A stretch of 64,000 bases of DNA, taken from assembly GCA_964526445.1 (NCBI GenBank), contig CAZGIY010000001.1, forward strand, positions 20,363 to 84,362, written 5' to 3'. The position numbers and the translations under genes were made by a program. Position 1 is the first letter of the stretch, and every line of letters begins with the position of its first letter. The notes beneath the pieces were generated by a model. The model was given only the letters and a program-made list of their open reading frames with translations, made no database searches and was not told the DNA's origin. Origin of the DNA: an uncultured Candidatus Poseidoniales archaeon (GTDB lineage: Archaea > Thermoplasmatota > Poseidoniia > Poseidoniales > Poseidoniaceae). Shown here in pieces: positions 3,876 to 53,190 of this stretch.

Positions 3876-4238
3876 TTATTCTTCTTCAATCAATACTTCA
3901 ACTGGTGGCACTTCCACTTCCAACCGCTTGGACGAAACTTCAGATTCATCAGGGATGTGAAAATCAGAAATTCCCCCCCGCCATTTTGTAGTCATATCCT
4001 CGACTTCCTCGTTTTCAATTTGTGGAATTTCTGAATCTGGATTAAGACTGTACATAATTGGATCAATGGGTTTTACTGGCTCCTCTGTTCGTATAGGTTG
4101 TGCCCTTTCCTCAAGGTGCGCAGTAGTGTGAAAGGTGCCGCATTCAGGGCATCTACTAGAACCAACTTGCTGTATACAACCACATGCTGAACAGACGCTC
4201 AGTCCGTCGAAGACGGCGAGCGGATCCATTTTCTTCAC
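3876..4238 (-). CDS. Zinc-ribbon protein with acidic C-terminal tail
   Basis: CSACG-x9-CPECG zinc ribbon followed by an E/D/P-rich tail. It is translationally coupled to the EF-hand protein gene, whose stop overlaps this gene's start at 4235-4238. Confidence 0.5.
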   Translation of the reverse strand: MKKMDPLAVFDGLSVCSACGCIQQVGSSRCPECGTFHTTAHLEERAQPIRTEEPVKPIDPIMYSLNPDSEIPQIENEEVEDMTTKWRGGISDFHIPDESEVSSKRLEVEVPPVEVLIEEE

Positions 4239-10776: not shown

Positions 10777-10810
10777 CGGTGAAGGAATGCTCTCTTATCC
10801 ATTACCACGT

Positions 10811-15461: not shown

Positions 15462-15464
15462 AGT

Positions 15465-16340
15465 CTAATTAGAATCGTTTGGGCGGATATAGGAAACTGT
15501 ACTCCCATTTCTTGTAAAGCCAAATAACGCTAGTCCTGCTTGTCTAGACAGATCTACTGCCATACTACTTGCAGCACCTATGGCTACTATGATTGGAATC
15601 CCTGCAGCGATTGCTTTGAGCACTAATTCAGAGCCAATTCTTCCAGAAAGACATAGTATTGACTTGGAGAAATCAATGCTCATTCGGACGCCAGCTCCAA
15701 CCACTTTGTCAACACAATTGTGTCGGCCAATATCTTCTCTGACAACAATCATTTCACCCTCGGCTGTGAACAATCCAGCAGCATGAATTCCCCCAGTGGT
15801 CGTGAATGCAGACTGTACGGTAAGCATCTTATGTGGCAATCCGATCAAAAGTTCGCTATCAACATGCATAGCAGGAATGGAACAGTCATGGGCCTTGGAT
15901 AGAAGATCTGCAAAATCTTGACGTCCACATATGCCGCATGCAGAACCATTACTGATTCTGCCCCTTGGGGTAACGTCATATTCAGCATCCTCGGGAATGA
16001 TGATACTAGCATTTCCTTCAGACAAGATGATTTCGATATCCTGTATTGGGCAATTAGTCAAAATCCCTTCACTGATTAATAGTCCCAATACCAAATCAGC
16101 GTCAGAACCGGGGGTTCTCAAGATACTGACCCAGCGTTCAGTAGAATCATTCTTAACCAAATCAATACTCAATGGTTCTTCTGTGGCAACCACATCTTTC
16201 TCCATTACCCACTTGCCATCCTTCAATCGATGAACGGCGCGTCTGACCACATCGTCCATGACAAGACCTGAAGCAACATGGTCATGAACATGTTCATCGA
16301 TTGAAATGGTTTCAAGATTCCAATCTCGCTCGCACAGCAT
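15465..16340 (-). CDS. fdhD: Formate dehydrogenase accessory sulfurtransferase FdhD
   Basis: FdhD-like with SACGICG cysteine loop and GRHNCVDKVVG motif. Lies 3 nt upstream of fdsB. Confidence 0.75.
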   Translation of the reverse strand: MLCERDWNLETISIDEHVHDHVASGLVMDDVVRRAVHRLKDGKWVMEKDVVATEEPLSIDLVKNDSTERWVSILRTPGSDADLVLGLLISEGILTNCPIQDIEIILSEGNASIIIPEDAEYDVTPRGRISNGSACGICGRQDFADLLSKAHDCSIPAMHVDSELLIGLPHKMLTVQSAFTTTGGIHAAGLFTAEGEMIVVREDIGRHNCVDKVVGAGVRMSIDFSKSILCLSGRIGSELVLKAIAAGIPIIVAIGAASSMAVDLSRQAGLALFGFTRNGSTVSYIRPNDSN

Positions 16341-16953
16341 CCATGCATTCTCTCGATAATTGCCTCGATTTCTCTAGAATCTGTGCCGCTTCTTCGCTAT
16401 ATTGCTCAGCCGCATCACCTTCCATTCCAATCAGGTTGATATCAACATTGAACAGGGCACCTTTACAGGCTGCTGAAGCAAGCAGGGCCGCAACTCCGAC
16501 ATCGGTCACTGCATTTCCGTTACCAGTGGTCGCAAGTGATGGAAGCGTTTCAAGCAACGAATAGGCAAGTCTAGCGGTTTCTAAGGGTACCTCTGCTGCA
16601 CCAAGAGTCGCTTCTCTAATGGCTTGTTTGCGAAGGTTTTTCTCTTCATCAGAATCCTTGGCAAGTCGATATGCCATCATGACTCCGTCAAAGGAACGAC
16701 TGTCGTCAGTTGCGAGGTCTAAAGAACGAGAAAACATCGATATTGCAACTTCTTGAGAAGTTTCTGCATCCTGCCAGCCATCTTTCCATTTTTCATTACC
16801 TATGGTAAGATCCGCAACCATGCAAGTCAATGCCGCCGCCTGTCCTAAAGAGACCGCAGCCGCAGTTCCACCCCCGGGGGTTGGAGATGAACTAGCAAGT
16901 GCAGTTTGGAAGTCCCGCAAACTCATTTCCGCCCAGTCATCATCACTCTGCAT
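16312..16953 (-). CDS. Formimidoyltetrahydrofolate cyclodeaminase (FTCD C-terminal domain homologue, stand-alone)
   Basis: SLRDFQTALASSSPTPGGGTAAAVSLGQAAALTCMV closely matches the cyclodeaminase domain of FTCD. Confidence 0.8.
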   Translation of the reverse strand: MQSDDDWAEMSLRDFQTALASSSPTPGGGTAAAVSLGQAAALTCMVADLTIGNEKWKDGWQDAETSQEVAISMFSRSLDLATDDSRSFDGVMMAYRLAKDSDEEKNLRKQAIREATLGAAEVPLETARLAYSLLETLPSLATTGNGNAVTDVGVAALLASAACKGALFNVDINLIGMEGDAAEQYSEEAAQILEKSRQLSRECMDAVRARLES

Positions 16954-17996
16954 TATTCATCCCTCCTGACTGCCATCTCAATGATTCTTTCCTTCGCTAC
17001 GAATGGGGCCAAGTCATCCAAGCCCATACCCTTTACTGCAGCGCTGATTAATTCCCCCTCCTCCTCTGTATCAGGTGCGTACCATCGCCCAGCATCCAAC
17101 ATTGCACGAATTGGCACCAGTCCTACCAATTCACTACCACTAACTTCGACACCGTAATTGCTAGCCAACCATTTGATTGTCTCGTAAACAACATGCATCG
17201 GAGTAACAGAGATGTCTTGTAGGTTCATGGAGACTTGAGAGATTCCATGTTCATCCAGTGGAAAACCCATACCCTGGACTTTTGCAAGCATTCCCGATAC
17301 CGGCAACCGATTTCCGTTAGAATTTTTTATGACTGGTCCTGATTGCCTGATGGTTTTGCCAATTGCTGCACTGACTCTTGCATCACTTTCCTGCAGATTG
17401 ACATTGTATGCAACCAAAATGTCTCTCGCACCGATAATCACCGCACCTGTTTTGGCGATTTCTTCACTCCAAATAGTCGGTCCAAAATCAGGCAATCTCG
17501 TCTCATTTGCATGAGGAGTTTCCGCTCCTTCACTCATTCTAGCTTCAAGTCCCTCGTATTCGCCCTTTCGGAGCAGACTGTGGTTACTCCTTTGTTCTGT
17601 ACTCGCTGCTGCACCGTATAGATATGCAGGCAGATTCAATTCTTCACTGACACGAATAGCAAGTCGTCTGGCTAATTCTGCGCAACTCAGCATATCGATA
17701 CCCTGCAATGGGACGAATGGACATACATCTACTGCCCCTAACCTCGCATGATTTCCACTATGTTTTCTCATGTCGATTAGTTTGATTGACTCTTTAATCA
17801 ATTGAAAGGCTGATTCACTGACCGCATTTGGATCACCAGCCAAAGTAATGACAGTCCTATTGTAATCGGCATCAGGTTCTGCCGAGAGAACTCTACAGCC
17901 ATCGATACTTGAGGCTGCAGCAACAACTGCTGCAATTACTTCTTCATCTATTCCTTCGCTGATATTCGGAACACATTCAACCAAAGGGTTGGTCAT
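16953..17996 (-). CDS. Glutamate formimidoyltransferase (FTCD N-terminal domain homologue, stand-alone)
   Basis: MTNPLVECVPNISEG...NRTVITLAGDP...HARLGAVDVCPFVP is collinear with the formiminotransferase domain of mammalian FTCD. A 1-nt overlap (ATGA) with the cyclodeaminase gene indicates translational coupling. Confidence 0.85.
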   Translation of the reverse strand: MTNPLVECVPNISEGIDEEVIAAVVAAASSIDGCRVLSAEPDADYNRTVITLAGDPNAVSESAFQLIKESIKLIDMRKHSGNHARLGAVDVCPFVPLQGIDMLSCAELARRLAIRVSEELNLPAYLYGAAASTEQRSNHSLLRKGEYEGLEARMSEGAETPHANETRLPDFGPTIWSEEIAKTGAVIIGARDILVAYNVNLQESDARVSAAIGKTIRQSGPVIKNSNGNRLPVSGMLAKVQGMGFPLDEHGISQVSMNLQDISVTPMHVVYETIKWLASNYGVEVSGSELVGLVPIRAMLDAGRWYAPDTEEEGELISAAVKGMGLDDLAPFVAKERIIEMAVRRDE

Positions 17997-28871: not shown

Positions 28872-29780
28872 CTAAGATGACCTCCCGATGAATTCGATTG
28901 AATCAGGCTCAAATTCTGCAGAGACCATACCTATTTCTTGCCCCTTCTTGAGGAATCTACGAATTGCTTCTCTTCCTTCATCTCCATAGTCAATAGTACG
29001 TTCATTGACATACATTTTAACGAATTTTTCATTTGTTTGATCATCGATACCTCGACCCCATGCCTTAGCAAATTCCAGCGCCTGCTCTGGGTTCTCAAGT
29101 GCATGTATAATACTCAATCTCGTCCAATTGGTGATGTTCTCAATCGTTTTACGACCGAGATCCTTGCGGACAATATTGCCGCCCAACGGTAATGGCAATC
29201 CATCATTATGTTCTGACCACCAAACTCCAAGATCAAGATGAACGTCAAGTTCATGCTCAACATAGGTCAATTGCCCTTCGTGGATGATAAGGCCTCCATC
29301 AACTTCTCCGGAATTGACAGCCTCGATGATCTCGTCGAATGGGATAACTTTGATTGAAACATCGCCCCAAGCCATTCGCAAACCTAGATAGGCGCTAGTC
29401 TTCAACCCAGGAACTGCAATCAATCCTCGCTTGATTTCTTCCGTCTCACTACCGCTTTTTGCTACTACCATCGGTCCATATCCCTCCCCCATACTGGCGC
29501 CACAATTCATCAGGGCATAATCTCCAGCAACCTCGGGGAACGAGTGAATACTGATTGCACTGACTTCTAGTTCTCTGTTCATCGCGCGCTGGTTCAAAGT
29601 TTCTATATCCTGTAATTCATGAACGAAGTGATAGCCTGGAGTGGATATCAATCCGGAAGTCAAAGCATGGAACATGAAAGCATCATCTGGATCGGGTGAA
29701 TGACCTATTCTTACAACCTTGAAAGATTCAGAGTTCAAGTCATTCTGTTCATCCATGATGCGCCGAAATGGGGCCCTCAT
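28872..29780 (-). CDS. MqnA/MqnD-family protein (likely 1,4-dihydroxy-6-naphthoate synthase MqnD, futalosine pathway)
   Basis: VRIGHSPDPDDAFMFHALTSG resembles the MqnD N-terminus LGYSPCPNDTFIFDAL. Periplasmic-binding-protein-like fold family. Confidence 0.5.
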   Translation of the reverse strand: MRAPFRRIMDEQNDLNSESFKVVRIGHSPDPDDAFMFHALTSGLISTPGYHFVHELQDIETLNQRAMNRELEVSAISIHSFPEVAGDYALMNCGASMGEGYGPMVVAKSGSETEEIKRGLIAVPGLKTSAYLGLRMAWGDVSIKVIPFDEIIEAVNSGEVDGGLIIHEGQLTYVEHELDVHLDLGVWWSEHNDGLPLPLGGNIVRKDLGRKTIENITNWTRLSIIHALENPEQALEFAKAWGRGIDDQTNEKFVKMYVNERTIDYGDEGREAIRRFLKKGQEIGMVSAEFEPDSIEFIGRSS

Positions 29781-29853
29781 TTCAAGATAGTTAGATGTCG
29801 ATAAGAATTGATTTGACTAAATCTGATAATCATGATAATCGCTGATTTTTGCT

Positions 29854-32418
29854 GTGTGCCGACAAAGATTCTATTTCAGATGGGGTGATGCAGCAGCGAG
29901 GATAGTCATGCGGGTACGCGGTGGGCCACTTGTCGCTTTACTGCTAACTTCGCTTTCAGTTATTGCACTTGCACAAGCTGCAACACCTAGTGGCATGGGA
30001 TTTGTTGGTGCGCATACAGTGGTTAGGGAAAGTTTCGATGAAACGCATAGCGTTGCCCTTTCTCCAGACGCCTCCCTTATTGCCACAGGGACTGAAGGAT
30101 ATGTTATTATTTCGCGCATATCCGATCGTTCTATAGTTGAAAGAATATCAGTAGGGGACCAAGTAACTGCTCTAGAATTCTCTCCCGATGGAGAATATCT
30201 CGCTTTGGGGCTTAGGTCTGATGCCCTTTCGGGGGATGCACTTAAAGTGCTATTCACTGATGATTGGAGGGAGTACGAAAAGACATTTGCTAATGGTAAA
30301 AATCCCAGTGACATTTCATTCTCTGATGCGGGAGATAAGATACTTCTTCAGGGTCAGGACAAAGATGTGTTCGAGTTGTCATTCCCCGAATTTTCCATAT
30401 TGGGTCACATGACGGGGCACCATTTGGATGATATTACGTGTACAGATTATGGATATGGGGGATTGATAGCAGTATCTGGTGGATTGGATGGTAAAATCGC
30501 TTTCTGGGATCTTTCAGATCATTCACTTTCCTCATCAATTGAGTTCGAGGATTCTGAAATTGTTGATTGTTTATTCAATCCATCATCTTCTCAAGTTGCC
30601 ATCTTGACAGATGACGGAAAAGTTAGATCATATTGGTTGAACGGGACTTTGGTTGAAGGCTCAGAACTCGATTTCCTACAAGCTAAGGAGCTCAAGTGGA
30701 GCCTTAATGGAAACCATCTATATGTATTGGAAACCAATATTTTGCCTTCTTTGCAGCGTGTGAGAGTGAATGATTGGATAGTCGATGAGTTCACTTACAT
30801 AGGTCACAATGTGAATGGATTTGATTTATCGGATGATGAAGAGACATTAGTGATTAGTACTGGAACTGTACATACGAGTGTATATCAGTCGACGTACTTC
30901 CAGCAAGGTTTTGGTGAGCCGGGAGATGATTTTGATCAAGATGGAGTGCCAGACGTAATCGATGTTGATGATGATGGTGATGGAATTTTGGATATTTACG
31001 ACCTCAACTGTTCTAGTTCAGATTGTACCAAGGACCCACATCCCAATTATATGCGAAATATTGAGTTTCAAGTATCTGATGAGGAGTTAATCATAAGCGA
31101 TAGCATATCATTCAATAGATCCGATTCTAATGCATTGAGAAATTTGACTACAAGTCTACTTTCTGATGATAACAAAATTAGTGTCGACGAATTAACTTGG
31201 ATGTCAACTGCCATGTGCGATAATATTAGACATAGGGATGTTATTGATCAATGGCATTCAATGATTGAGGTTGAGGGTTCACAATTGAGCAATGGAACAC
31301 TATCCTGTGAACCCGTATCTGGAATTTCTTCCAATGATTTCAGCGATTTTAGTCATAGGGCAACTCTTACTTGGATTACAACATTTGATTTATCGAGTGC
31401 TCCAATTGCGCCCTACAATATTACAGTAAAGGGAATTATCCTTGCTCCTACTGGCTCTTCCGCAATCATTGCCCCACAGTTCCCGGCTTCAATCGATTTT
31501 GCCGATTTGAATTCAGAAAATAATCGAATTGACTTGTGGAATCGGAACGAAACGATTAGAATTGTCTTGATGGAAGAATTGGAGGAAGAAGGACCTGGAT
31601 TGACTGGCTTAGTAGCGTCGTTCATTTCAGACAATTTTTGGATTCCAATAAGCAGTTTCCTTGGAATCTTTATTGGTATCGGATTGATTATCAAGCAAAA
31701 CAAGGACATTTCTAATGCATTGATTCGTGGGGGTAGAGAGGAAGATGAAGAGGGGGAAGATGAAGAGGATGATTATGATGAATCATTCAATGACTCAAAT
31801 CTATATGAATCTGAACATTACGAGGAGTCCGATTCCGCTGACGACGAGTCAACATGGAGTAACGAATCAGAGTCTATGCCTCCTCGGCCAAAACGGCGCC
31901 CTCCTCGAAAATCTACGAGAAGAGTAGCACATGAAGAGTATCCTATCGGTGATTCTACTCCTGTCAAGGCTAGGAGAAAGCGCGTTAGTAGTAAACAACC
32001 AATTGGTTCTAAGCGACACACTCTTTCTGAATCTGTAGAATTGGATTATGATTATGGCCAAGACGGAGTATATCATGATGGTGATTGGGATACAGAGTAT
32101 GACATTTACGAACAGCCCCAGACCAAAGTACGCAAAGTGCGTAAAGTGGAAAGCGTTCCTGAACTTGAAGCGGAAGAATCCAAGCCGGAGCAAAAGAAAG
32201 GAAGAAGGAAGGTTAAGAGGCGCAATAACGAGAAAGGAAAAGCCTCCAGTAAAGCAGTGGATGATGATTCCATCGTTGCAAAGAAAGTTGTTACGTCCAA
32301 GAAACGCAGTTCAGGGTCAAAGAAAACTCAAGATGATGGAGGCAAAGTCTCGTCTGATGATGAAGATTCAGCAATGGACAAAGCATTGGGTATGTTAACG
32401 GGTGATTCCAAGGATTGA
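29854..32418 (+). CDS. Secreted/surface beta-propeller protein with thrombospondin-type-3-like Ca-binding repeats, C-terminal TM anchor and highly charged cytoplasmic tail
   Basis: Signal-peptide-like LVALLLTSLSVIALAQA. WD40/PQQ-like repeats. DQDGVPDVIDVDDDGDGILDIYD. A C-terminal TM segment (ISSFLGIFIGIGLII), then an E/D- and K/R-rich tail. Confidence 0.7.
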   Translation: MCRQRFYFRWGDAAARIVMRVRGGPLVALLLTSLSVIALAQAATPSGMGFVGAHTVVRESFDETHSVALSPDASLIATGTEGYVIISRISDRSIVERISVGDQVTALEFSPDGEYLALGLRSDALSGDALKVLFTDDWREYEKTFANGKNPSDISFSDAGDKILLQGQDKDVFELSFPEFSILGHMTGHHLDDITCTDYGYGGLIAVSGGLDGKIAFWDLSDHSLSSSIEFEDSEIVDCLFNPSSSQVAILTDDGKVRSYWLNGTLVEGSELDFLQAKELKWSLNGNHLYVLETNILPSLQRVRVNDWIVDEFTYIGHNVNGFDLSDDEETLVISTGTVHTSVYQSTYFQQGFGEPGDDFDQDGVPDVIDVDDDGDGILDIYDLNCSSSDCTKDPHPNYMRNIEFQVSDEELIISDSISFNRSDSNALRNLTTSLLSDDNKISVDELTWMSTAMCDNIRHRDVIDQWHSMIEVEGSQLSNGTLSCEPVSGISSNDFSDFSHRATLTWITTFDLSSAPIAPYNITVKGIILAPTGSSAIIAPQFPASIDFADLNSENNRIDLWNRNETIRIVLMEELEEEGPGLTGLVASFISDNFWIPISSFLGIFIGIGLIIKQNKDISNALIRGGREEDEEGEDEEDDYDESFNDSNLYESEHYEESDSADDESTWSNESESMPPRPKRRPPRKSTRRVAHEEYPIGDSTPVKARRKRVSSKQPIGSKRHTLSESVELDYDYGQDGVYHDGDWDTEYDIYEQPQTKVRKVRKVESVPELEAEESKPEQKKGRRKVKRRNNEKGKASSKAVDDDSIVAKKVVTSKKRSSGSKKTQDDGGKVSSDDEDSAMDKALGMLTGDSKD

Positions 32419-33218
32419 TTCATTTGATCGCTCAACTTGAAATCATCAATCTCTAGAACTTCAGAAATGAACATTTCTAGTCCTGCTTCCACTTCACTGT
32501 CGAAATCATAGAGAACTTCTTCAAAATATCTTCTGATACGATCCTCATTGAATCCACTTCTGGCTGAACACAGGGAAACAACTTCCTCCTTGACTTCGGG
32601 GCTTCGGAATGAATTGAGGGAATTCTGTAATTCCGCATACGCATCACTGACAATATCCGGAGGGGCATCTCGATGGGTAGCAAAAACAGCAAACACCATT
32701 GGCAAACCAGTAACATCCTTCCATTCCATACCAAGATCCATACGAACGAGGTCAGGCCTTCTTTGAGCTTCATGTAATGCTCTATCTCCAATCAGCAAGG
32801 CTCCGTCGCATCTCTCCAACATACTTTCCAGATCGGGCCCCATTTCCACAGGTCGCGGATCATGTCCGCGCTTCTTCAGAAGATACATCAATAATCGTCT
32901 TGAGGTTGCAGAATCGGTAGGTAATGCAACATCTCTCATATCGTCAATTTCTCTTTCACCAAATAATAGCACACTCCCAACACTTCCGTCAGATATGATA
33001 CCCATTCCTGGCACTAAGGATAATTCATTTCTGTTCAATGCCCAGTCCGCAGCAGGAATAGGGGCAATCAGGCAGTCCTTTCTGAGTAGGTGTCCAGTCA
33101 ACCAAGCAGGTGGGGCAGCGAGAATCTTCCACTTGTCTGAGATTTGGTGATATAGTGGGTCACAATTGAGGAATGCGACTCTTCCCAATGTACGCTGCCA
33201 TGTCGATGTATTTTCCAT
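32328..33218 (-). CDS. mqnA: Chorismate dehydratase MqnA (futalosine pathway)
   Basis: RVAFLNCDPLYHQI matches the MqnA N-terminal (I/V)G.I.(F/Y)LNC.P(L/I) signature. PBP-like fold. Confidence 0.6.
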   Translation of the reverse strand: MENTSTWQRTLGRVAFLNCDPLYHQISDKWKILAAPPAWLTGHLLRKDCLIAPIPAADWALNRNELSLVPGMGIISDGSVGSVLLFGEREIDDMRDVALPTDSATSRRLLMYLLKKRGHDPRPVEMGPDLESMLERCDGALLIGDRALHEAQRRPDLVRMDLGMEWKDVTGLPMVFAVFATHRDAPPDIVSDAYAELQNSLNSFRSPEVKEEVVSLCSARSGFNEDRIRRYFEEVLYDFDSEVEAGLEMFISEVLEIDDFKLSDQMNQSLESPVNIPNALSIAESSSSDETLPPSS

Positions 33219-33227
33219 TATATCACC

Positions 33228-34445
33228 TCACTTAACCATCGGCAGGGATTTTCTCCGCGAAACTCGGTCAGCAACGACTCGTTCGAACTTATTGTAAACA
33301 GTATTTCTGCGAACTGCATCGCATCCAGATCTCTCAATGAGCCTACACATGTCATCAATTCCATGATCTAGCGGGGCCGTTGATCCAGCGAGGTGCATTA
33401 TTGATTCTTGAAGTACGGTTCCGTCCACATCATCGGCTCCACAAGAAATCGCTATCTCTGTCAAGGCATCCCCAATATTCATTCTATATGCCTTGATGTG
33501 TGGAATATTGTCCAACATCAAACGGCTTATTGCAATCATGCGTAATATCTCGTTAGCGCTGGCCAATTGGGCTTCGGGTAGCCTGGTTGAGTCTGGAAGG
33601 AATGGATAGGGTACGAAGCATTGGAAACCATTGGTCTCATCTTGTAGTTCTCTAAGTTTGAGCAGGTGTTCAATACGCTGCTCGGGAGTCTCAACAGTGC
33701 CGAACAACATGGTGCAATTTGTAGGAATGCTAAGATTGTGTGCACTTCTGTGAATGTCCAAGTATTCTCTACTGCTCTCTTTACCCCTGCAAATCTTCTC
33801 TCTAACTGAATCCACTAAGATCTCTGCACCACCTCCTGGAATACTTCCTAATCCCGCTTCGGACAACATTTCCAAGGTGTCACTGATACTGATATTCGAC
33901 AGAGAGGAAATGTGCTTGATTTCAACCGCAGTCAGGGCCTTGATATGGAGTTCTGGATACCTTTGTTTCGTCCTTCGGAATAATTCACAATAATGTCCAA
34001 CATCCCAGTCAGGATGTAATCCTCCTACCGAATGAACTTCGTCTATTATCTCAGAATATGGTTCGATCATTGAAATGTATTTCTCTATATCCATGGCATA
34101 TGCATCTGTTGCTCTTCTTCCGCGCCTAAAAGCACAGAACTTACAAGCAAGAACACAGATATTTGTTTGATTAACGTGAATATTCAGATTGAAATGGATG
34201 TCCTTTCCAAATCTTGCCCGCTTGCAAATATCTGCCATAGACAAGATGCTTCCAAGATCTTCATGAAGTAATAGTGCGAGTCCATCTTGACCTGTTATTC
34301 TTCCATCAGTAATCAAACGGTCTCGGATATCTTCAAGCACCTCATCCAGCCCATTTAGGGCGAGTAAACCGTTGCTTTGGGATCTCATCCAGTCCGAGTT
34401 GAAACCAGGTTGGCGCATGCAATCCCAACCCCTCGTCATGGACAT
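33228..34445 (-). CDS. Radical-SAM menaquinone biosynthesis enzyme, MqnC/MqnE family (aminofutalosine synthase or cyclic dehydroxyfutalosine synthase)
   Basis: CVLACKFCAF CxxxCxxC motif and CofG/CofH/MqnC/MqnE-like TIM barrel, adjacent to mqnA. The track ORF start (34517) would overlap the ATPase gene by 47 nt, so an internal ATG at 34445 or 34385 is more likely. Confidence 0.6.
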   Translation of the reverse strand: MSMTRGWDCMRQPGFNSDWMRSQSNGLLALNGLDEVLEDIRDRLITDGRITGQDGLALLLHEDLGSILSMADICKRARFGKDIHFNLNIHVNQTNICVLACKFCAFRRGRRATDAYAMDIEKYISMIEPYSEIIDEVHSVGGLHPDWDVGHYCELFRRTKQRYPELHIKALTAVEIKHISSLSNISISDTLEMLSEAGLGSIPGGGAEILVDSVREKICRGKESSREYLDIHRSAHNLSIPTNCTMLFGTVETPEQRIEHLLKLRELQDETNGFQCFVPYPFLPDSTRLPEAQLASANEILRMIAISRLMLDNIPHIKAYRMNIGDALTEIAISCGADDVDGTVLQESIMHLAGSTAPLDHGIDDMCRLIERSGCDAVRRNTVYNKFERVVADRVSRRKSLPMVK

Positions 34446-34470
34446 CAAGAATGAATGCTTGTATTGCCCT

Positions 34471-37404
34471 TCATCGCTTGAAGGAAGGGGTGTTGCCAAG
34501 TTTGGTCTTGAGTACACCCTCTCTGAGCATTATCTTACGGAACTCTTCTATCCATAAGACAGAGGAGGAAATCAACAATAACACTAGCCAAGTAGTCCAG
34601 TTGAGGAATTTGGTCGATAATAACTCTCCAATCATCAAATCAGAGAATGGTAAGGTGAATGTTGAATTTTGAACTACAAATAACAACAATGCAGAACATC
34701 CAATCAATGAATAATTGATCGCCCGATTGCTGAATAATCCTAGTTTGAATACACTGTCAGTAACACTCCTGCAATTGAGGATGTTAAAGAATTGGAAGAG
34801 AGTAAATACGGCAAATGCAGCAGTCCTCGCAACTTCGAATCTTTCTTCAGCCCAATTTGTCCAAGCCTCTTCATCGCACAGCCCTTCTTCAGAAGCAGCC
34901 AATTTTCCATCGAAGTAGATATTTCCATTATCGAAAGTACCCATAGTACAATGATTTTGAGCCTTTACTGATCCATCAGCAATGTAGAACACGGTTAACG
35001 TTCCAACAACCATTATCGAAGCAGTCCAAAATATCAAAGCCATATCGATGAGATTTGGCAATCCTTCATTGACAGGCTTTGGTGGAACACTCATAACGCT
35101 TCCATGCTTCTTTTCTACGCCTAGGGCAACTGCAGGTGGTCCATCCATCAGGATATTGATGACAAGTATCTGAGTTGCAGTAAATGGCAGGTCCCATCCA
35201 AATACGAAAGTGGAAATTATGATGATAGCAACTGCAGCTACATTGGTGGAAATCTGATATCTTACGAAGTTACGTATGTTCTGGTAAATCTTCCTTCCCT
35301 CTTCTACAGCATGGACAATGTTGGCAAAGTTATCATCCTGTAGAACCATGTCAGCAGCGTCTTTCGCCACATCAGTACCTGCCATACCCATCGCAATTCC
35401 AATGTTGGCTTTCGATAAAGCAGGAGCATCATTGACTCCATCACCAGTCATGGCGACCACTTCTCCGCGTACCTGTAAAGCACTGACAATACGCATCTTT
35501 TGGTCAGGAGTTACTCGATGATATACATCGGTTTGACCCGCCTTATCGATTAATTCATCATCACTCATCTCAGAAAGTGCATAGCCACTCAAGGATTCAG
35601 AATGTTTACCTGCGATATCCAGATTTTGTCCTATTGCTAGTGCTGTAATCTCTTGATCACCTGTAATCATCTTCACGCCAATACCTGCGGCTTTGCAGAT
35701 TTTGATAGCATCCTTGACCTCGGCACGAGGAGGATCCATGATGGCAACCAAGCCAAAGAGTATCAGATTATTTTCCATGCTTGCCATGTCGGTGGTATCT
35801 TCCCCTTTCTCAACTCTGCGCCCGCATAAAGCAAGAACTCTCATCGCCTGGGCTGCCATTTCTCGATTGGCATTTAGCACCGAATCGATGTCCCCTTGTT
35901 TGATTGGCTTCTCTTGATTATTTACGACGATCTTTTTGACTAGGTCCCTGTAGCCGCCTGCAGCACCTTTGGACAATACCCAAGTTTCACCATCAATCTC
36001 TGTTATCGTGCTCATTCTCTTTCTTTCTGCATCAAAGAAGAATTCAAATGAACGTGGAAACATTTCACCTAGATTTTCTATATCTCCATGAACTTTCCAA
36101 CCAAACACAGCACACGCGGAGTCTGTAGGGTCTCCGATGGCCTCCCATGCTCCATCGAATTTGTGCACTGTACTGTTGTGGCACAGAGCGGCGCACAAAC
36201 TGCCCATTCTGAAAGCAGGGTTTTCCATCATTTGTTCTAACCCTTCAGATGATAATCGCTCACCCTTAGAAACAACTCCTCCTGCTGTCGGGTCAAAACC
36301 TTCACCAGAAACATCGTATTCTTCATCTGGCGTCCAGAATTTTCTGACAGTCATCTGGTTCTTGGTCAAAGTTCCCGTTTTATCAGTACAGATGACGGTG
36401 GTAGAGCCTAAGGTTTCGACTGCCTTCATTCTTCGAACGATAGCCTTGTGTCGAGCCATGTTTCGCATACCTAGCGCCAAAGTAATGACTAGAATGATTG
36501 GCAAACCTTCAGGAACGATAGCAACAAAGATTGCTATGGCTACAATGAATTGATCGATTGCAACCTCAAGTAGACTCCGGCCATCGGGTTGAAGATATGC
36601 TACTACTAATTCCAATGAAACCAGAAGTACTGCTACAAATAATGCGATGAATCCCAAGAAACGACCGAGGGATTCGAGTTTAATTTCAAGGGGCGTCTTT
36701 GGTGTTTCAGCATCGGCAATCCCACTTGCGATGTGACCCAATTCGGTCTTCATCCCTGTAGTAACAACTATTCCAACGGCTCTGCCACTAGATGCAACAG
36801 TTCCCATGAAAGCCATATTTGATTGTTCGGCCAAAATACGTTTACCTTGAATTGATGTCGTCTTTTTGGTTACAGTATCGGACTCTCCAGTCAATGCCGA
36901 CTCGTTGATTTTGAATTGGTAGACTTCGGTCAATCTGACATCTGCAGGGATGTTGTGTCCTTCCTCCATTTTGACAATATCACCGGGAACAAGTTCGAAT
37001 GTGGGTATCTCGAGTTCCCTACCTTCTCTTTCAACAATACAGTTACTTACTGCCATTTGTTTCAGAGCATCCATCGCCTGCTCTGCTTGGTTTTCTTGCC
37101 AATATCCGAAAACTGCGTTGATGGTCAATACCAAGCAGATGAAAATCGCATCTCCAGGCTGCTCAAAACTATGAATTACCAAGGATATGACTGCTGCTCC
37201 CATTAGTAGGAATATCAACGGATCGTTGAATTGAGACAGTAGACGTAGCCACCATGCATCTCTTTCAGGTTCATCGAGTTTATTCGGACCATATTCTTCG
37301 AGTCTTTTTCCCGCTTCTTCGTCGCTCAAACCTTCTGGAGCGGTAGATAATTTAGCATAGACTTCATCTTGCTTCATGGCAAACCAATCTCTATCTGCAG
37401 TCAT
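34471..37404 (-). CDS. P2-type Ca2+-transporting ATPase (SERCA/PMCA-like)
   Basis: ICTDKTGTLT phosphorylation site, TGDGVNDAPAL, PEGLP in M4, N/D in M6 (INILMDGPPA). Ala at the position of SERCA E771, i.e. PMCA-like with a single site. Cation_ATPase_N-like N-terminus. Confidence 0.85.
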   Translation of the reverse strand: MTADRDWFAMKQDEVYAKLSTAPEGLSDEEAGKRLEEYGPNKLDEPERDAWWLRLLSQFNDPLIFLLMGAAVISLVIHSFEQPGDAIFICLVLTINAVFGYWQENQAEQAMDALKQMAVSNCIVEREGRELEIPTFELVPGDIVKMEEGHNIPADVRLTEVYQFKINESALTGESDTVTKKTTSIQGKRILAEQSNMAFMGTVASSGRAVGIVVTTGMKTELGHIASGIADAETPKTPLEIKLESLGRFLGFIALFVAVLLVSLELVVAYLQPDGRSLLEVAIDQFIVAIAIFVAIVPEGLPIILVITLALGMRNMARHKAIVRRMKAVETLGSTTVICTDKTGTLTKNQMTVRKFWTPDEEYDVSGEGFDPTAGGVVSKGERLSSEGLEQMMENPAFRMGSLCAALCHNSTVHKFDGAWEAIGDPTDSACAVFGWKVHGDIENLGEMFPRSFEFFFDAERKRMSTITEIDGETWVLSKGAAGGYRDLVKKIVVNNQEKPIKQGDIDSVLNANREMAAQAMRVLALCGRRVEKGEDTTDMASMENNLILFGLVAIMDPPRAEVKDAIKICKAAGIGVKMITGDQEITALAIGQNLDIAGKHSESLSGYALSEMSDDELIDKAGQTDVYHRVTPDQKMRIVSALQVRGEVVAMTGDGVNDAPALSKANIGIAMGMAGTDVAKDAADMVLQDDNFANIVHAVEEGRKIYQNIRNFVRYQISTNVAAVAIIIISTFVFGWDLPFTATQILVINILMDGPPAVALGVEKKHGSVMSVPPKPVNEGLPNLIDMALIFWTASIMVVGTLTVFYIADGSVKAQNHCTMGTFDNGNIYFDGKLAASEEGLCDEEAWTNWAEERFEVARTAAFAVFTLFQFFNILNCRSVTDSVFKLGLFSNRAINYSLIGCSALLLFVVQNSTFTLPFSDLMIGELLSTKFLNWTTWLVLLLISSSVLWIEEFRKIMLREGVLKTKLGNTPSFKR

Positions 37405-46197: not shown

Positions 46198-47223
46198 TCA
46201 GCGTGAAGCCAATGTAAGGTTCTTCCACATATCTTCTGGAACTTCCATGGAGAGTCTCAAACCACCCATGGCACCGAGTCGAACAGGATCATCAACTACG
46301 TGTACATTTATTTCTCCCAAATCAGAGAGTCTCTCCTCAATCAATGCACCAAGACCTCGAATTCCTGAGCCACCTCCTGCTAGAATCATATTACGACGGA
46401 ATGAGTCATGGTATTCTGGGTTCGATGAAGCAATAAGTGCCTTAACTCTCTCAACAATCGGGTCGACAATACTTTCACAAGCATTCTGAATACAATCAGT
46501 AATATCGAGAGTCATCGCTTTACCTTCGATGGAGAAATCTACCATAATTGGATCATCAGGTGGTGATGCCCCTGTAAAGGAGTGCTCTTCCTTCCATCTT
46601 CGAGCCATATCCTTGGTCACTTGAGCGCCGTTGTACTTTATCTGTACTTGTTCGATGATTTGGTTATCTACGTAATCCCCAGCATACTGTGTGTGAACCT
46701 GGTCATCTGGTTCTGGAATTGTACCATATACTCTGCATACGTCAGTTGTTCCTGCACCGATATCAATAACCAAAGTGTGTTCAAGCATGTCCAAAGCATA
46801 AGCAACAGCGAATGGTTCAGATATAATCATACAAGCATTTACAGTTCCGGCTGCAGCGTCAAAGATGTATGTCTTATCGACATATGATGCCTCAGCAGGT
46901 GCTCCAATCACTGCTACCACTCTATCGTATTCTTCAGGGTCTGCCAGACCGATTAGATGGGTGATGAAATGGGCGATGAATTCTCTGTCCTTCTGAGTAT
47001 CCTTGATTACACCGTGTTCCAAAGGCCGGAAGAGATCAAGAGCCAATCGATTCTTCAGTGCTTCTTCTCCAAATAGAACGTCTCTCTTGAGGAAGTTTCT
47101 GGCGATATGATCTTTCGGAGTACCAATAACAGTAAGTTCCTCTTCCTCGTGATTATCACTCGATACCATTACGGAACGGAAGGTTCCCAAGTCCACTCCA
47201 ATATACAGTACATCTTCAGCCAT
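46198..47223 (-). CDS. Actin-fold (ASKHA) ATPase, ParM/Ta0583/MreB-like rather than eukaryote-like actin
   Basis: YIGVDLGTFRSV phosphate-1, VIDIGAGTTD phosphate-2, ILAGGGSGIRGL adenosine motif. Lacks eukaryotic actin signatures. Confidence 0.7.
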   Translation of the reverse strand: MAEDVLYIGVDLGTFRSVMVSSDNHEEEELTVIGTPKDHIARNFLKRDVLFGEEALKNRLALDLFRPLEHGVIKDTQKDREFIAHFITHLIGLADPEEYDRVVAVIGAPAEASYVDKTYIFDAAAGTVNACMIISEPFAVAYALDMLEHTLVIDIGAGTTDVCRVYGTIPEPDDQVHTQYAGDYVDNQIIEQVQIKYNGAQVTKDMARRWKEEHSFTGASPPDDPIMVDFSIEGKAMTLDITDCIQNACESIVDPIVERVKALIASSNPEYHDSFRRNMILAGGGSGIRGLGALIEERLSDLGEINVHVVDDPVRLGAMGGLRLSMEVPEDMWKNLTLASR

Positions 47224-47297: not shown

Positions 47298-48305
47298 TCA
47301 TACCCATGTTTCACAGGGAGAGCAATACCATGCTGCGTACTCAGGATAAAGGTCAGCCATGCCTCCACAACCGGTGCATTCCTTGACTGCTCTATCTCCG
47401 AAAATACCCATAACTATGCGCACGTGGTCAGCATCTGAAATCCCCAGTTGTTCTCTCATCGCCCATAGCATCTGGTCTTCACTTGGCGAAATTATCCCAT
47501 CCTCCAGCACGATTTGAACTGCCGCTTGATAATCTTCGACCATTCGTACATCACGGGCGTCCATTGATACACCTCCCTTTTCAGCCACTAAATCTTGACC
47601 TCCAGGGTCGTCAACATAGATTACTAGTGATGCTGAATCCAATTGTGTATTTTTCATTTCAAAGAGGATGGAGGCGCCATCATTAGAAGCATAAACAAAG
47701 TTTGACAATCGATTGATTATACTGGCCATGTTACGCGCAGTATCTTCGATTGTACGTCCTCGGCGCCAACCTCTACTATCATCCTCATCATAACCATAGA
47801 ATTCGGTCCCCCTTCCGGGATATTCCAAACGAACTTCCTCTCCGCCATCGAATTCGTTGTTAAGCAAGGTAACCGATGCGATCACCGTATTGCCAATGTT
47901 ATCATCGTCATCAAAGGAAATCATCAGTGGTTTACGTTCTTCATTAGCAACATTGAATGTCCCTTGTAAACCTGTCATCCACTTATCTTCAAGACGCTGT
48001 AGACTGGCTTCTTGTTCTCTTGAGAGGTCCTTATTAATCCCTAAAACTCCTCTCAATTGACCGCTCTCCATCTCTTGTCTGAATTCATCAATCAACTCAG
48101 CATCTCTACGATGATTGGGAGGGGGGCCTCTGGTAGCTTGAACATGATTCGGGTCTTTCCATTCATGGGAACATTTCACACATATCAGGAACCCTGCCAA
48201 TGATGAGGGCTCAGCCTCTCCCCTGCATCGTGGGCAGTCGCCTTCTTCATCGACGTTCAGATTCTCGCCTGCAGCCTTTCTTCCTCGCCTGATGCCCATT
48301 CCCAT
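47298..48305 (-). CDS. Zinc-ribbon protein (N- and C-terminal CxxC pairs) of unknown function
   Basis: CPRCRG...CVKCSHEW near the N-terminus, CTGCGG...CSPCETWV at the C-terminus, and a TerB-like helical region. Start reassigned to ATG 48305, because the track ORF overlaps the thiolase gene by 128 nt. Confidence 0.4.
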   Translation of the reverse strand: MGMGIRRGRKAAGENLNVDEEGDCPRCRGEAEPSSLAGFLICVKCSHEWKDPNHVQATRGPPPNHRRDAELIDEFRQEMESGQLRGVLGINKDLSREQEASLQRLEDKWMTGLQGTFNVANEERKPLMISFDDDDNIGNTVIASVTLLNNEFDGGEEVRLEYPGRGTEFYGYDEDDSRGWRRGRTIEDTARNMASIINRLSNFVYASNDGASILFEMKNTQLDSASLVIYVDDPGGQDLVAEKGGVSMDARDVRMVEDYQAAVQIVLEDGIISPSEDQMLWAMREQLGISDADHVRIVMGIFGDRAVKECTGCGGMADLYPEYAAWYCSPCETWV

Positions 48306-48354
48306 AAAAAGGGCAGACCTGCTCTTGTCAAAGAAGGTTTGCGAAGGTGAACCC

Positions 48355-49494
48355 TCAATAATTTCGTAGAATGGTGGCGATTCCCATGCCTCCACCAATA
48401 CACATTGTTGCAAGTGCATATTCCCCTCCGGTACGTTGCAACAATGATGCAGCCTTACCAGTAATTCTAGCGCCACTGGCACCTAATGGATGTCCAATAG
48501 CCAATGCTCCTCCATCGATATTGACTCTATCGTCATCGGAATCCAAGCCTAAATCAGCCATTACTGCCAAGGACTGAGCCGAAAAAGCCTCATTCAACTC
48601 GATTACATCTATATCGTCTAGAGATATACCCGCACGATTAAGTGCCTTGATACTGGCCTTTACAGGGCCAATCCCCATGATTTCAGGAGCGACGCCAATT
48701 ACTGCACTGGAAACTATTGTGGACATGGGATTCAAACCATACTCTTCTGCATGTTCTTGTGAACACACAACGGTGAAAGCAGAGCCGTCTGTCAAAGGAG
48801 ATGAAGTGGCGGCCGTAACTGTTCCATCCTCCTTGAATGCAGGTGCAAGGCCAGCCATTCTCTCCATGGTTGTTCCAGCACGAATGCAACCATCCTCTGA
48901 GATGATTTTCTCAGCATTAGTTATTGAAACCAATTCAGTATCCAGATGTCCAGATTCTCTTGCAGATGCTGCTTTGGCATGACTGTTGAGGGCGAAGAGT
49001 TCCTGTTCTTGCCGATCTATGGAGTATGATTCTGCGAGATTCTCAGCTGTCAAACCCATATTGATGTAAGCCTGAGGATAACTATTCTCTAACTCAGGGT
49101 GCAAGTCGCGATTCCAACCCCCTCGCTTGACAAGAGACATACTTTCAACGCCGCCACAAAGAAACAATTCTCCTGCATTAGTTGCAATAGCACCTGTTGC
49201 ATCATGAATACTTTGCATGGAAGAACCGCACAAGCGATTAGAGGTCACCCCAGGTATACTTGCAGGAAGTCCACTGAGGTATGTTGTGATTCGACCTATA
49301 TTCAATCCCTGAACGCCTTCAGGATATGCACATCCTATCTTCAAGTCCTCGATCAAACCAATGTCAATTCCTGTTCTATCTATCAATTCCTTGACCACTT
49401 GTGAGGCCATATCCTCAGGCCTTGTAGTGGCCAAATCTCCCTTGTGAGCGCGGTGAAAAGGTGAGCGGGCATATCCGGCCAAGACTGCAGTCAT
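48355..49494 (-). CDS. Acetyl-CoA C-acetyltransferase (thiolase II)
   Basis: NRLCGSSMQ (Cys nucleophile), NEAFSAQ, GHPLGASGARI, CIGGGMG. Confidence 0.85.
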   Translation of the reverse strand: MTAVLAGYARSPFHRAHKGDLATTRPEDMASQVVKELIDRTGIDIGLIEDLKIGCAYPEGVQGLNIGRITTYLSGLPASIPGVTSNRLCGSSMQSIHDATGAIATNAGELFLCGGVESMSLVKRGGWNRDLHPELENSYPQAYINMGLTAENLAESYSIDRQEQELFALNSHAKAASARESGHLDTELVSITNAEKIISEDGCIRAGTTMERMAGLAPAFKEDGTVTAATSSPLTDGSAFTVVCSQEHAEEYGLNPMSTIVSSAVIGVAPEIMGIGPVKASIKALNRAGISLDDIDVIELNEAFSAQSLAVMADLGLDSDDDRVNIDGGALAIGHPLGASGARITGKAASLLQRTGGEYALATMCIGGGMGIATILRNY

Positions 49495-50267: not shown

Positions 50268-50663
50268 TTACTGGAATTTGCCGCAGGCAGAACAGAATTC
50301 TAGGTCCCCTTCAAGTATAGCATCACAATGTTTGCACACTGAATCTCCTTGCTGTGCAGTTTTGCCTTGGGCGATATCTAGATTGGCAACTAAACGGACC
50401 GCTTTCTGTAGTTCTAGGGGATCATGTCCTGCATCTTTCAATTCCTTCCATTTGTATCGGAATGCGATGGCCTCTTGAATTGCCGCCTCTATCTGCAGAC
50501 GTCTACGATTTCGTTCTTCAACATCGGTAATTTCTTCAGACTTTTCCAATTCAGTCTGCAAATGCCGTTGAAATTCATCCACAGTTGGATTATCACCCAT
50601 GAGTCTACGAAGAAGCGATTGGTCTTCATCCCACCGGCGAATGACTTTGAGTAAGGCCCCCAT
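50268..50663 (-). CDS. Small protein with C-terminal zinc ribbon
   Basis: CKHCDA...CSACGKFQ. Confidence 0.3.
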   Translation of the reverse strand: MGALLKVIRRWDEDQSLLRRLMGDNPTVDEFQRHLQTELEKSEEITDVEERNRRRLQIEAAIQEAIAFRYKWKELKDAGHDPLELQKAVRLVANLDIAQGKTAQQGDSVCKHCDAILEGDLEFCSACGKFQ

Positions 50664-51480: not shown

Positions 51481-53190
51481 ATGCACGTGCGTAAGATAGG
51501 CGAGCACATGAACAGTGGAGGCGATTCTCTACCCGGGCACTCCGCGCAACAGGTCGATTTCATGATGGAACGCCTAATTTATGTCAACGAAGATGACAAA
51601 CCTATAGGGTATGTTGAAAAGTTTGATGCCCATTTTGGCAGAGGGTGTTTACATCGCGCCTTTTCTCTACTCGTCTTTGATTCCAGCAATAGATTACTTC
51701 TACAGAAGCGCTCTAGTGATAAAATCACATTTCCCGGAATATGGGCTAATACTTGTTGCTCGCATCCGTTGAACAATGACGAAGAAAGAAACGGCTTTGA
51801 AGGTAGCATCAAAGCAGCAATACGAAAGGTGGAGCAAGAATTAGGAGTTGACACTACTGATTTGAGACCGGAAATGTTTGTCCCTGCTTCCAAGATGCTG
51901 TATATGTCAAGAATGGATGAGGAATGGGTTGAGAAAGAGTTGGATCATATCATTATTCTAAGAAGCGACCTTGTTTGCTCACCTAATCCAAATGAGGTAG
52001 AAGAAATAAAGTGGGTAAGTGAGGAAGAGTTACAAGAATTTCTTGCTGATTCTAAAGGTGAAATCATTGCGCCTTGGTTTAGATTGATTGCTGAAAGACT
52101 TCTTCCCGCATGGTGGGAGGATTTAGATTCAGTAAGTGACGATGGTCTGATTCATAATTTTGGACGTATCGACCTAGTACCATCTCCAATTATTGGCGAA
52201 ACTTTGGAGCAGGCAGTTGCTAGGTGCCGACCTCGGGTCGAGGAATTGCTCGTACAGGCACTAAACAAGACGTCTGTACCACGTTTGCGGAATGCAATGA
52301 TGCACTTGATCGAAGGAGGAGGTAAACGCTTGCGAGCAACATTGCCACAATTGGTAGCAGAGGCATTAGATGTGAGTCCAGAAAATGAAGATCTAGAATT
52401 TGTGGGAGCTGCACTAGAAGTCATTCACAATTTCACTTTAGTTCATGATGACATTATGGATGATGATGAAATCAGGAGAGGGCGCCCCGCAGTGCACATA
52501 GAATATGATGTACCTACTGCGATTAATGCCGGAGATGCTATGTTGGCAATAGGTTTTGAATTGCTCGTAGAGGATGGAAATATTGCACCTGATTATCTTT
52601 CAGATGTCATTTTGGACATCTCTTCAATGGTTCGCAAAGTTTCAGAGGGGCAACAACTCGATATCGCTTTCGAGAATGAAGAGAATATAGGTGTTGTAGA
52701 ATATATGCAAATGATCGAAGGCAAGACCGCAATTATGTTCCAAACCGCTGCGCGCCTTGGCGCATTACTTTCTGGAGCAAGGGATAAAATTGTAGATGCT
52801 TGTACTAACTGGGGTCTGCATTTGGGAATGTGTTTCCAGTTGATGGATGATTTAATCGACGTATTGAGTGATGGAAAGACATTGGGTAAACCAAGAGGCA
52901 GTGATATTGCTCAGGGGAAGAAGACTCTCATGGTACTACACGCTCTAGAACAGCAAGGTGATGATGTTGACTTGTTGAAATCTATTCTTGGTAAAGGCGA
53001 GAATGCAACTCAGGATGAATTAGATTCTGCAATAGGGGCCTTGGAACGATTGGGTTCTATCCAATACGCGCGGGAAACCGCCGAAGCTTGCCACAATTCT
53101 GCCCATGTGGAACTAGATAGATTACCGTATTGGGCAGAACTCTCTGTTTTACGAGAGTTAACAGATTGGCAGATAAAAAGAATTTCTTGA
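51481..53190 (+). CDS. Fusion protein: type-1 (Nudix) isopentenyl-diphosphate isomerase plus geranylgeranyl diphosphate synthase
   Basis: N-terminal half HRAFSLLVFDSSNRLLLQKRSSDKITFPGIWANTCCSHP...WFRLIAERLLPAWW is collinear with eukaryotic IDI1. C-terminal half has FARM LVHDDIMDDDEIRRGRP and SARM MDDLIDVL of trans-prenyltransferases. Confidence 0.8.
   Translation: MHVRKIGEHMNSGGDSLPGHSAQQVDFMMERLIYVNEDDKPIGYVEKFDAHFGRGCLHRAFSLLVFDSSNRLLLQKRSSDKITFPGIWANTCCSHPLNNDEERNGFEGSIKAAIRKVEQELGVDTTDLRPEMFVPASKMLYMSRMDEEWVEKELDHIIILRSDLVCSPNPNEVEEIKWVSEEELQEFLADSKGEIIAPWFRLIAERLLPAWWEDLDSVSDDGLIHNFGRIDLVPSPIIGETLEQAVARCRPRVEELLVQALNKTSVPRLRNAMMHLIEGGGKRLRATLPQLVAEALDVSPENEDLEFVGAALEVIHNFTLVHDDIMDDDEIRRGRPAVHIEYDVPTAINAGDAMLAIGFELLVEDGNIAPDYLSDVILDISSMVRKVSEGQQLDIAFENEENIGVVEYMQMIEGKTAIMFQTAARLGALLSGARDKIVDACTNWGLHLGMCFQLMDDLIDVLSDGKTLGKPRGSDIAQGKKTLMVLHALEQQGDDVDLLKSILGKGENATQDELDSAIGALERLGSIQYARETAEACHNSAHVELDRLPYWAELSVLRELTDWQIKRIS

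Follow-up and report, generated by a model that had tools for sequence, protein, structure and literature searches.

Archaea usually isomerize isopentenyl diphosphate (IPP) and dimethylallyl diphosphate (DMAPP) with the type-2 isomerase. A review of 2012 (PMC3533463) records the type-1 enzyme (IDI1) from no archaea other than Haloarchaea and Thaumarchaeota, and attributes it there to transfer from bacteria. Natural fusion of IDI1 to another isoprenoid enzyme is known from the diatom and algal IDI-squalene synthase PtIDISQS, in which a long-form IDI1 lies N-terminal to an isoprenoid chain enzyme (PMC12168105), and an artificial fusion with a yeast IDI, that of Pichia joined through a (GGGGS)2 linker to the geranylgeranyl diphosphate (GGPP) synthase (GGPPS) of Sulfolobus, raised the yield of a GGPP-dependent product (PMC6786277). 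Here we describe a single gene that encodes a long-form IDI1 followed by an archaeal type-I trans-isoprenyl diphosphate synthase, found in a 64,000-nucleotide stretch of DNA (the window) from an uncultured Candidatus Poseidoniales archaeon (GenBank assembly GCA_964526445.1, contig CAZGIY010000001.1, positions 20,363 to 84,362 of the forward strand). The fusion is real and conserved, and we consider it very probable that it is a genuine bifunctional enzyme of Marine Group II (MGII; Poseidoniales), combining IDI1 and GGPPS activities, with C20 as the most probable product length.

The natural fusion is widespread and, in the literature that we searched, uncharacterized; both of its domains belong to textbook families and its mechanism is unsurprising. 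The isomerase half shares with human and other eukaryotic IDI1 (2ICJ, 2ICK, 2DHO) the NTCCSHP motif, all metal-binding and catalytic residues and a match over the whole domain, as well as a C-terminal WW...L-H tail that is missing from the short enterobacterial enzymes, but here it forms the N-terminal half of a larger archaeal protein. The prenyltransferase half shares its fold, its first and second aspartate-rich motifs (FARM and SARM) and an aromatic residue at position -5 with the archaeal type-I GGPPS of Geoglobus acetivorans (5JFQ), Pyrococcus horikoshii (1WY0) and Sulfolobus; identity in Foldseek superpositions is 32-34%, the target-normalized TM-score (TMt) reaches 0.92, and the HNFTLVHDDIMD context is held in common. 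Unlike these stand-alone enzymes, it bears an N-terminal isomerase and scores below the cut-offs of the product-specific hidden Markov models.

The known fusions differ from the window protein in instructive ways. PtIDISQS has a head-to-head squalene synthase (PF00494) as its C-terminal partner, which makes no direct use of IPP or DMAPP, whereas the partner in the window (PF00348, not PF00494) is the immediate consumer of both isomerase substrates, and we therefore regard the window protein as an analogue and not as a member of the IDISQS group. Proteins of the IDISQS type are among the closest homologues of the isomerase (45-50% identity for P0130 and P0131). Other IDI1 fusions in the same set are an HMG-CoA reductase-IDI protein (P0160) and several more IDI-squalene synthases, among them P0153, P0159, P0240 and P0255; IDI1 has repeatedly become joined to other enzymes of isoprenoid synthesis. 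The engineered enzyme has the same parts in the same order as the window protein, a eukaryote-type IDI1, a linker of about 10 residues and an archaeal GGPPS, but its linker is a man-made, flexible Gly-Ser sequence, while the natural linker keeps its sequence across homologues and is predicted to have partial order. Orthologous genes also exist as split pairs, with their boundary at the linker position, but these encode two polypeptides.

A conserved in-frame fusion

The open reading frame (ORF) of the fusion contains no internal stop codon, and the junction around nucleotides (nt) 52110-52200 is read through in frame. Pfam places both domains in the same polypeptide, NUDIX at residues 58-195 (E = 1.3e-10) and polyprenyl_synt (PF00348) at residues 267-518 (E = 3.9e-68), and NCBIfam models likewise match each half. 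The initial annotation of this DNA, made from its letters without database searches, had described a single in-frame polypeptide joining a type-1 IDI to a trans-prenyltransferase with intact FARM and SARM. That description stands: the isomerase motifs that it quoted lie at residues 83-96 (TFPGIWANTCCSHP) and 198-204 (PWFRLIA), and DDIMD and DDLID are found in alignment columns that are 93-100% conserved.

A search of 5.8 billion proteins recovered both Pfam domains in all of the 120 best matches, to which our protein counts refer, with lengths of 554-592 residues; the nearest match is 95% identical, is also 569 residues long and occurs on 10 contigs. A scan of one genome per GTDB species gave 482 matching stretches. 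The best 80 of these are the basis of our locus counts. All 80 have the fusion with its conserved linker, and in 79 of them one in-frame tblastn segment starts no later than query residue 27 and reaches at least residue 566, the exception (L080) being a polished long-read contig. The 80 loci are nearly all labelled Poseidoniales, Poseidoniaceae or archaeon, two of them bearing the names of bacterial metagenome-assembled genomes (MAGs), and they include a fusion in the MGII genome CM001443 (L042), assembled in 2012. The elongation factor EF-2 of the window is 94-96% identical to EF-2 of the Poseidoniaceae MAGs L001 and L002, which assigns the window to MGII, although the identity between the fusion proteins is only 62-64%.

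The fusion is abundant in databases, where it has been represented since CM001443, the first MGII genome, and is annotated automatically either as 'isopentenyl-diphosphate delta-isomerase' or as 'geranylgeranyl diphosphate synthase type I'. In the open full-text literature, whose scope excludes most subscription journals, we found no description or assay of the archaeal fusion. This agrees with the initial annotation, for which the fusion was not known to have been characterized; the gene itself has long been public.

Residues 1-9 of the ORF are gapped in about 85-97% of the 201 fusion homologues that we aligned, the set behind the residue conservation given here unless another alignment is named, and the consensus methionine is M10. 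Because some 90% of these homologues have their first residue where M10 lies, translation probably starts at the ATG at nt 51508, giving a protein of 560 residues. The AlphaFold2 model of this shorter form has a mean predicted local distance difference test score (pLDDT) of 88.1 and a predicted TM-score (pTM) of 0.85. This pTM and the shortness of the linker, about 10 residues, argue for a compact protein of two domains. The linker is the only interdomain stretch with lowered pLDDT (72; model residues 221-230, corresponding to ORF residues 230-239), and its columns are 49-91% conserved, so that it is predicted to be a short, sequence-conserved and partly ordered element and not a floppy spacer; a conserved linker and a high pTM give a hint of a defined interdomain geometry. 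Each of the 50 Foldseek matches listed for the model superposes on one domain, and none of them covers both halves. The features of the locus are collected in Table 1.

Table 1. Coordinates of the fusion gene, its elements and neighbouring genes in the window, and of split gene pairs on other contigs.
Feature	Position	Strand	Basis
IDI1-GGPPS fusion ORF, 569 aa + stop	51481..53190	+	ORF list and sequence
Type-1 IPP:DMAPP isomerase domain, long 'eukaryote-like' form, aa ~22-230	51544..52170	+	TIGR02150, IDI1 alignments
Codon of catalytic Cys93 (human C87, E. coli C67), in NTCCSHP	51757..51759	+	C in 201/201 homologues
Codon of catalytic and metal-binding Glu153 (human E149, E. coli E116)	51937..51939	+	E in 201/201 homologues
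Interdomain linker, aa ~231-240, consensus SHMLPNAIGA	52171..52200	+	pLDDT dip, conservation, split position
Archaeal type-I short-chain trans-isoprenyl diphosphate synthase domain, predicted GGPP synthase, aa ~241-569	52201..53187	+	PF00348, archaeal GGPPS structures
FARM DDIMD, aa 323-327	52447..52461	+	Motif search; columns 99-100% conserved
SARM DDLID, aa 456-460	52846..52860	+	Motif search; columns 93-100% conserved
Isopentenyl phosphate kinase (IPK), 257 aa	50673..51446	+	NF040647 IPPK_Arch 150.5 bits (cut-off 120); PF00696
Bacterial-type acetyl-CoA C-acyl/acetyltransferase (thiolase), 379 aa	48355..49494	-	TIGR01930 399 bits (cut-off 240.55); Thiolase_N + Thiolase_C
UbiD-family decarboxylase, 420 aa	56718..57980	+	TIGR00148 304.5 bits (cut-off 244.85)
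Split IDI and GGPPS gene pairs	L081:8001-9703, L090:8001-9670, L088:7184-8844		4-nt overlap at linker

Active-site residues and predicted product

The isomerase half passes the IDI1 equivalog cut-offs of NCBIfam, with 141 bits against 105.8 for TIGR02150 (IPP_isom_1) and 138 against 127 for PRK03759 (NF002995). Its sequence match to human IDI1 (2icj/2dho) amounts to 160 bits over residues 21-218, compared with about 60 bits for the E. coli and 71 bits for the Salmonella enzyme. Human IDI1 is also its best structural match in Foldseek (38% identity), with TMt of 0.88-0.89 and a root-mean-square deviation (rmsd) of 1.9-2.0 Å over about 220 columns against 2ick, 2i6k and 2icj. The initial annotation had left the catalytic Cys and Glu of IDI1 to be sought by alignment, and both are present, as C93 and E153, in every one of the 201 homologues. 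The same invariance extends to the metal ligands H51, H58, H95, E151 and E153 (human H41, H52, H89, E147 and E149), to the active-site residues Y141 and W199 (human Y137 and W197) and to the diphosphate-binding R77 (human R71), with its companion K81 (human K75) conserved in 200 of 201 and an X in the remaining sequence; E120 of the ELG motif is likewise invariant (alignment A1). The domain keeps the long-form C-terminal tail WW...D-x-L-I-H-x-x-G, in which LIHxxG occupies residues 223-228. This tail aligns with the end of human IDI2, and its LIH..G positions are 87-100% conserved.

The membership of the prenyltransferase half in its superfamily is secure. Its best sequence matches in the PDB are the archaeal GGPPS of Geoglobus (5jfq, 191.8 bits) and Pyrococcus (1wy0, 179.9 bits), the C-terminal domain of the model superposes on them with TMt of 0.90-0.92 and 0.87, respectively, and the FARM context, HNFTLVHDDIMD, is identical to that of 5jfq. 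The motifs GGKRLR, RRG, GQQLD, GKT and GKxxGSD are conserved. An aromatic residue at -5 before a FARM without insertion, accompanied by a small residue at -4, is by the established rule for chain length the pattern of archaeal type-I GGPPS, and the window protein has F318 at -5 and T319 at -4 of an uninserted FARM. The predicted product is most probably C20 GGPP; since the product-specific cut-offs are not reached, this prediction rests on the rule for the -5 Phe and on the nearest structures.

Origin of the isomerase and of the fusion

The isomerase had initially been called 'eukaryote-type'. As a statement of similarity the label is apt, given the 160 bits to human IDI1 against 60 to the E. 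coli enzyme, but as a statement of origin it is not firm, for bacteria share the long form. After the archaeal sequences, the nearest named homologues are from Albugo, a nematode, zoopagomycete fungi and a eukaryote, at 44-47% identity. The same long-form IDI1 occurs in the marine bacteria Endozoicomonas montiporae and Ca. Kentrum, at 44-49% identity to the archaeal split IDI, and its presence there means that the label gives nothing firm on origin. A further long-form IDI1, 46% identical to the isomerase part of the window protein, lies in a bacterial-looking biosynthetic cluster (L086:530-8714), beside a ketosynthase, a UbiA prenyltransferase, an AMP-ligase, a radical SAM enzyme, a thioesterase and a carrier protein.

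A search with the isomerase half uncovered AT-rich contigs (35-36% GC) of marine archaeal relatives that encode IDI (224-235 residues) and GGPPS (327-332 residues) apart. The stop codon of the one gene and the start codon of the other share a 4-nt overlap (TTGA or ATGA), located precisely where the fusion has its linker. We count as split the loci L081-L083, L090/L091 and L088/L089, and leave the ambiguous L092 outside this set. The first two groups share the neighbours of the window from ProRS through UbiD, with IPK upstream and EF-2 downstream, and the neighbours of L088/L089 differ. In different samples, the split forms of the L081, L090 and L088 groups are seen on 15, 22 and 6 contigs, respectively, and the split IDI families hold dozens of clusters at 90% identity. 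The 4-nt overlap means that a single-nucleotide change interconverts the translationally coupled pair and the fusion, and judging from the junction sequences the fusion may have arisen from an overlapping gene pair through such a change, or can revert to one. In a neighbour-joining tree the split L081 sequence falls outside all fused sequences in 74% of bootstraps, a placement weakened by an outgroup (P0148) that is itself fused and by an L081 branch that is long and AT-rich.

The outgroup P0148 (JGI sample 3300072015) is a colinear IDI-GGPPS fusion that is 41% identical to the window protein and lies outside the MGII gene order, adjoining a response regulator and a histidine kinase. A second outlying protein, P0175 (L085:1279-2949; 556 residues), comes from a short metagenome contig and joins a long-form IDI1 to a eukaryote-type (type-III, DDIED) GGPPS. 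This fusion is independent and suggests that the IDI-GGPPS architecture has arisen at least twice.

A candidate that we set aside in this context is P0121 (290 residues; L084:8001-9760, on a 1.9-Mb polished long-read contig), which had the appearance of a stand-alone IDI. It is a frameshifted fusion, because the conserved linker and the N-terminal GGPPS helix continue in another frame. A frameshift seems to have cut short the fusion gene in L080 as well; breaks in this gene thus occur as artefacts of long-read assembly.

Alternative explanations

Several points weigh against the reading of the fusion as a bifunctional IDI1-GGPPS, or limit what can be built on it. We found no biochemical data in the literature for any member of the fusion family. 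The product-specific NCBIfam models remain below their cut-offs, IdsA (NF040698) at 268.5 against 468, GGPP_syn (NF041003) at 243.7 against 500 and the geranylfarnesyl diphosphate synthase model at 246 against 560 bits. The existence of natural split versions means that the covalent link is not required for viability and weakens any notion of obligatory channelling. The most elementary challenge, that an assembly or frameshift error had joined two adjacent genes, could draw on the split neighbours in related lineages and on the frameshifts that affect this very gene in the long-read assemblies L084 and L080, and the initial annotation had itself raised it. We reject it as virtually without prospect, as the gene is in frame with a conserved linker in 79 of 80 independent species genomes and in all of the 120 best protein clusters, from many studies and sequencing platforms, and a 95%-identical homologue of the same 569 residues exists on 10 contigs. 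It is also very unlikely that the Nudix domain acts as a hydrolase or regulatory module, for instance as an IPP/DMAPP diphosphatase working against IPK. Plants do tune the ratio of isopentenyl phosphate (IP) to IPP with Nudix hydrolases and IPK, and the Pfam match is to the generic NUDIX family only. The IDI1 equivalog models are, however, above their cut-offs, the IDI-specific Cys, Tyr, Trp, three His and two Glu are all invariant, and the alignment to human IDI1 is nearly full-length, at 160 bits, with a fold match of 2.0 Å rmsd; we reject the hydrolase on the equivalog cut-offs and the invariant residues.

The identity of the product leaves more room for doubt. A mixture of farnesyl diphosphate and GGPP, as made by the IdsA of methanogens, C25 geranylfarnesyl diphosphate or a longer chain for menaquinone would fit the ranking of the NCBIfam models, in which IdsA comes first and geranylfarnesyl diphosphate synthase second, all under cut-off, and menaquinone (futalosine) genes are present at 28872-34517 of the window. 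We think such a product unlikely, given the Phe at -5, the small residue at -4 and the uninserted FARM of the type-I GGPPS pattern, the identity of the HNFTLVHDDIMD context to that of 5jfq, the GGPPS as nearest structures and the lower scores of long-chain synthases. As to what the fusion achieves, it is conceivable, though less likely than not, that the event was selectively near-neutral, having removed the 4-nt stop/start overlap and fixed 1:1 expression without any channelling or kinetic gain. Several lineages, in many samples, have kept split pairs with the same junction, which in L081 and L090 also have the same synteny; fused and split states are a single nucleotide apart; and IPP and DMAPP are small, freely diffusing molecules needed in a ratio of three IPP per DMAPP, which by established enzymology would make a closed tunnel implausible. 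Set against this are the good conservation of the linker and of the C-terminal tail of the isomerase over more than 200 fused sequences, a pTM of 0.85 that suggests a fixed interdomain arrangement under selection, and the gain in yield with the engineered analogue (PMC6786277).

We thus retain the bifunctional IDI1-GGPPS, and read its benefit conservatively as fixed 1:1 dosage and co-localization, with channelling conjectural and dispensable for viability. In a more ambitious proposal, the fused enzyme would be an IPP-to-GGPP 'metabolon' in the true sense, with a measurable kinetic advantage, and the fused and split states in sister lineages of planktonic Thermoplasmatota would be a natural experiment; the long-form, eukaryote-like IDI1 would have reached the ancestor of these archaea by inter-domain transfer from marine eukaryotes or bacteria, replacing the type-2 isomerase. 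We regard this combination as unlikely; if it were true, the gene would mark the lineage and at the same time supply terpenoid engineering with a finished design.

A model for the IPK-fusion locus

Our analysis suggests a model for the working of this locus. IPK would make IPP from IP, the metal-dependent N-terminal domain of the fusion would interconvert IPP and DMAPP, and the C-terminal domain would condense one DMAPP with three IPP to give the C20 product GGPP. With the fusion directly behind IPK, the locus would encode three consecutive steps, from IP through IPP and DMAPP to GGPP. The GGPP may then feed geranylgeranylglyceryl phosphate (GGGP) synthase for ether lipids and probably the synthesis of carotenoids and retinal as well. 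The prenyltransferase fold normally dimerizes, and the fusion would accordingly form a dimer carrying two isomerase domains. The fusion would hold the two activities at 1:1 and co-located on one particle, and proximity of the two sites is implied by the short linker and the pTM of the model.

Few microbes of the surface ocean are as abundant as the archaea of Marine Group II, and none of the group has been cultured. If the model is correct, IPK and the fusion carry out the three reactions by which C5 units become committed to the C20 block of ether lipids and of proteorhodopsin retinal, and a major archaeal group uses a type-1 isomerase in the form closest to the eukaryotic one. GGGP synthase and proteorhodopsin have been reported as traits of MGII (PMC6336850), and the lipids of planktonic Thermoplasmatota, including Marine Group II, are described as still unknown (PMC8473941). 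The chain length of the product bears on which isoprenoids MGII can make, and the gene offers a direct handle on the lipid question. In this fusion, nature has reached the same design of IDI, linker and archaeal GGPPS that engineers built for GGPP supply, and the natural fused and split pairs provide matched material on whether such fusions help.

Genomic context

The order Tpt1, a small ORF on the minus strand, IPK, fusion and EF-2 on the minus strand is conserved: of the 80 loci, 79 have IPK as the gene immediately before the fusion and 77 have EF-2 after it. IPK, whose best PDB matches are the IPK structures 8u0k and 7lnt, ends 34 nt upstream of the fusion ORF and is probably co-transcribed with it. 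At the other end, the stop codon of the fusion (53188-53190) directly adjoins that of the convergent EF-2 gene (ORF end 53191), with no intergenic base for a terminator. The small ORF between Tpt1 and IPK (50268-50663, minus strand; 131 residues) has no family match, occurs in 72 of the 80 loci and encodes a C-terminal CxxC...CxxC.

An IPK immediately upstream and a thiolase nearby had both been noted at the outset, and both are there. The thiolase could possibly catalyse the first step of the mevalonate route or belong to beta-oxidation, and in 59 of the 80 loci its place upstream of Tpt1 is taken by some type of thiolase. About a dozen of the 80 loci (L001-L080) have a bacterial-type thiolase 65-73% identical to that of the window; most others have a gene only 21-27% identical, which in the one locus examined (L084) encodes a thiolase with a Thiolase_C_1 domain. 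One type of thiolase seems to have replaced another in place here. Next to the thiolase, a conserved ORF of 394 residues (47298-48482, minus strand) has no family match; its listed start overlaps the thiolase gene by 128 nt, and its real start is probably further downstream. Beyond it lies a gene for an actin-like protein (46198-47223, minus strand), whose nearest family is MamK (361.6 bits; cut-off 400), with further matches to the BeeR and salactin models; the gene is kept at the same position in L081, L084, L090 and L092.

The UbiD-family gene stands just beyond EF-2, S7 and S12, at the same position in fused and split loci (L081, L084, L090, L092), and its best PDB matches are only generic UbiD enzymes. 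It could encode the anhydromevalonate-phosphate decarboxylase of the archaeal mevalonate route, for which it is a candidate, or, given the menaquinone genes of the window, an enzyme of a quinone pathway.

Two VitK2_biosynth genes of the futalosine pathway and a CofH/MqnC-like radical SAM gene (28872-29780, 32328-33218 and 33228-34517, all on the minus strand) make menaquinone synthesis by this organism probable, and menaquinone would likewise draw on prenyl diphosphates. Elsewhere in the window, an 854-residue WD40 beta-propeller protein (29854-32418, plus strand), which has a counterpart of 863 residues in L088/L089, and a 635-residue protein with a double zinc ribbon and several EF-hand calcium-binding motifs (4235-6142, minus strand) both have domains that are unusual for archaea. 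A histidine-degradation set (7164-17996, minus strand) comprises histidine ammonia-lyase, urocanase, and formiminotransferase and cyclodeaminase as separate genes, and is interleaved with genes for a molybdopterin oxidoreductase, an NADH-dehydrogenase-like 51K subunit and FdhD that resemble a formate dehydrogenase.

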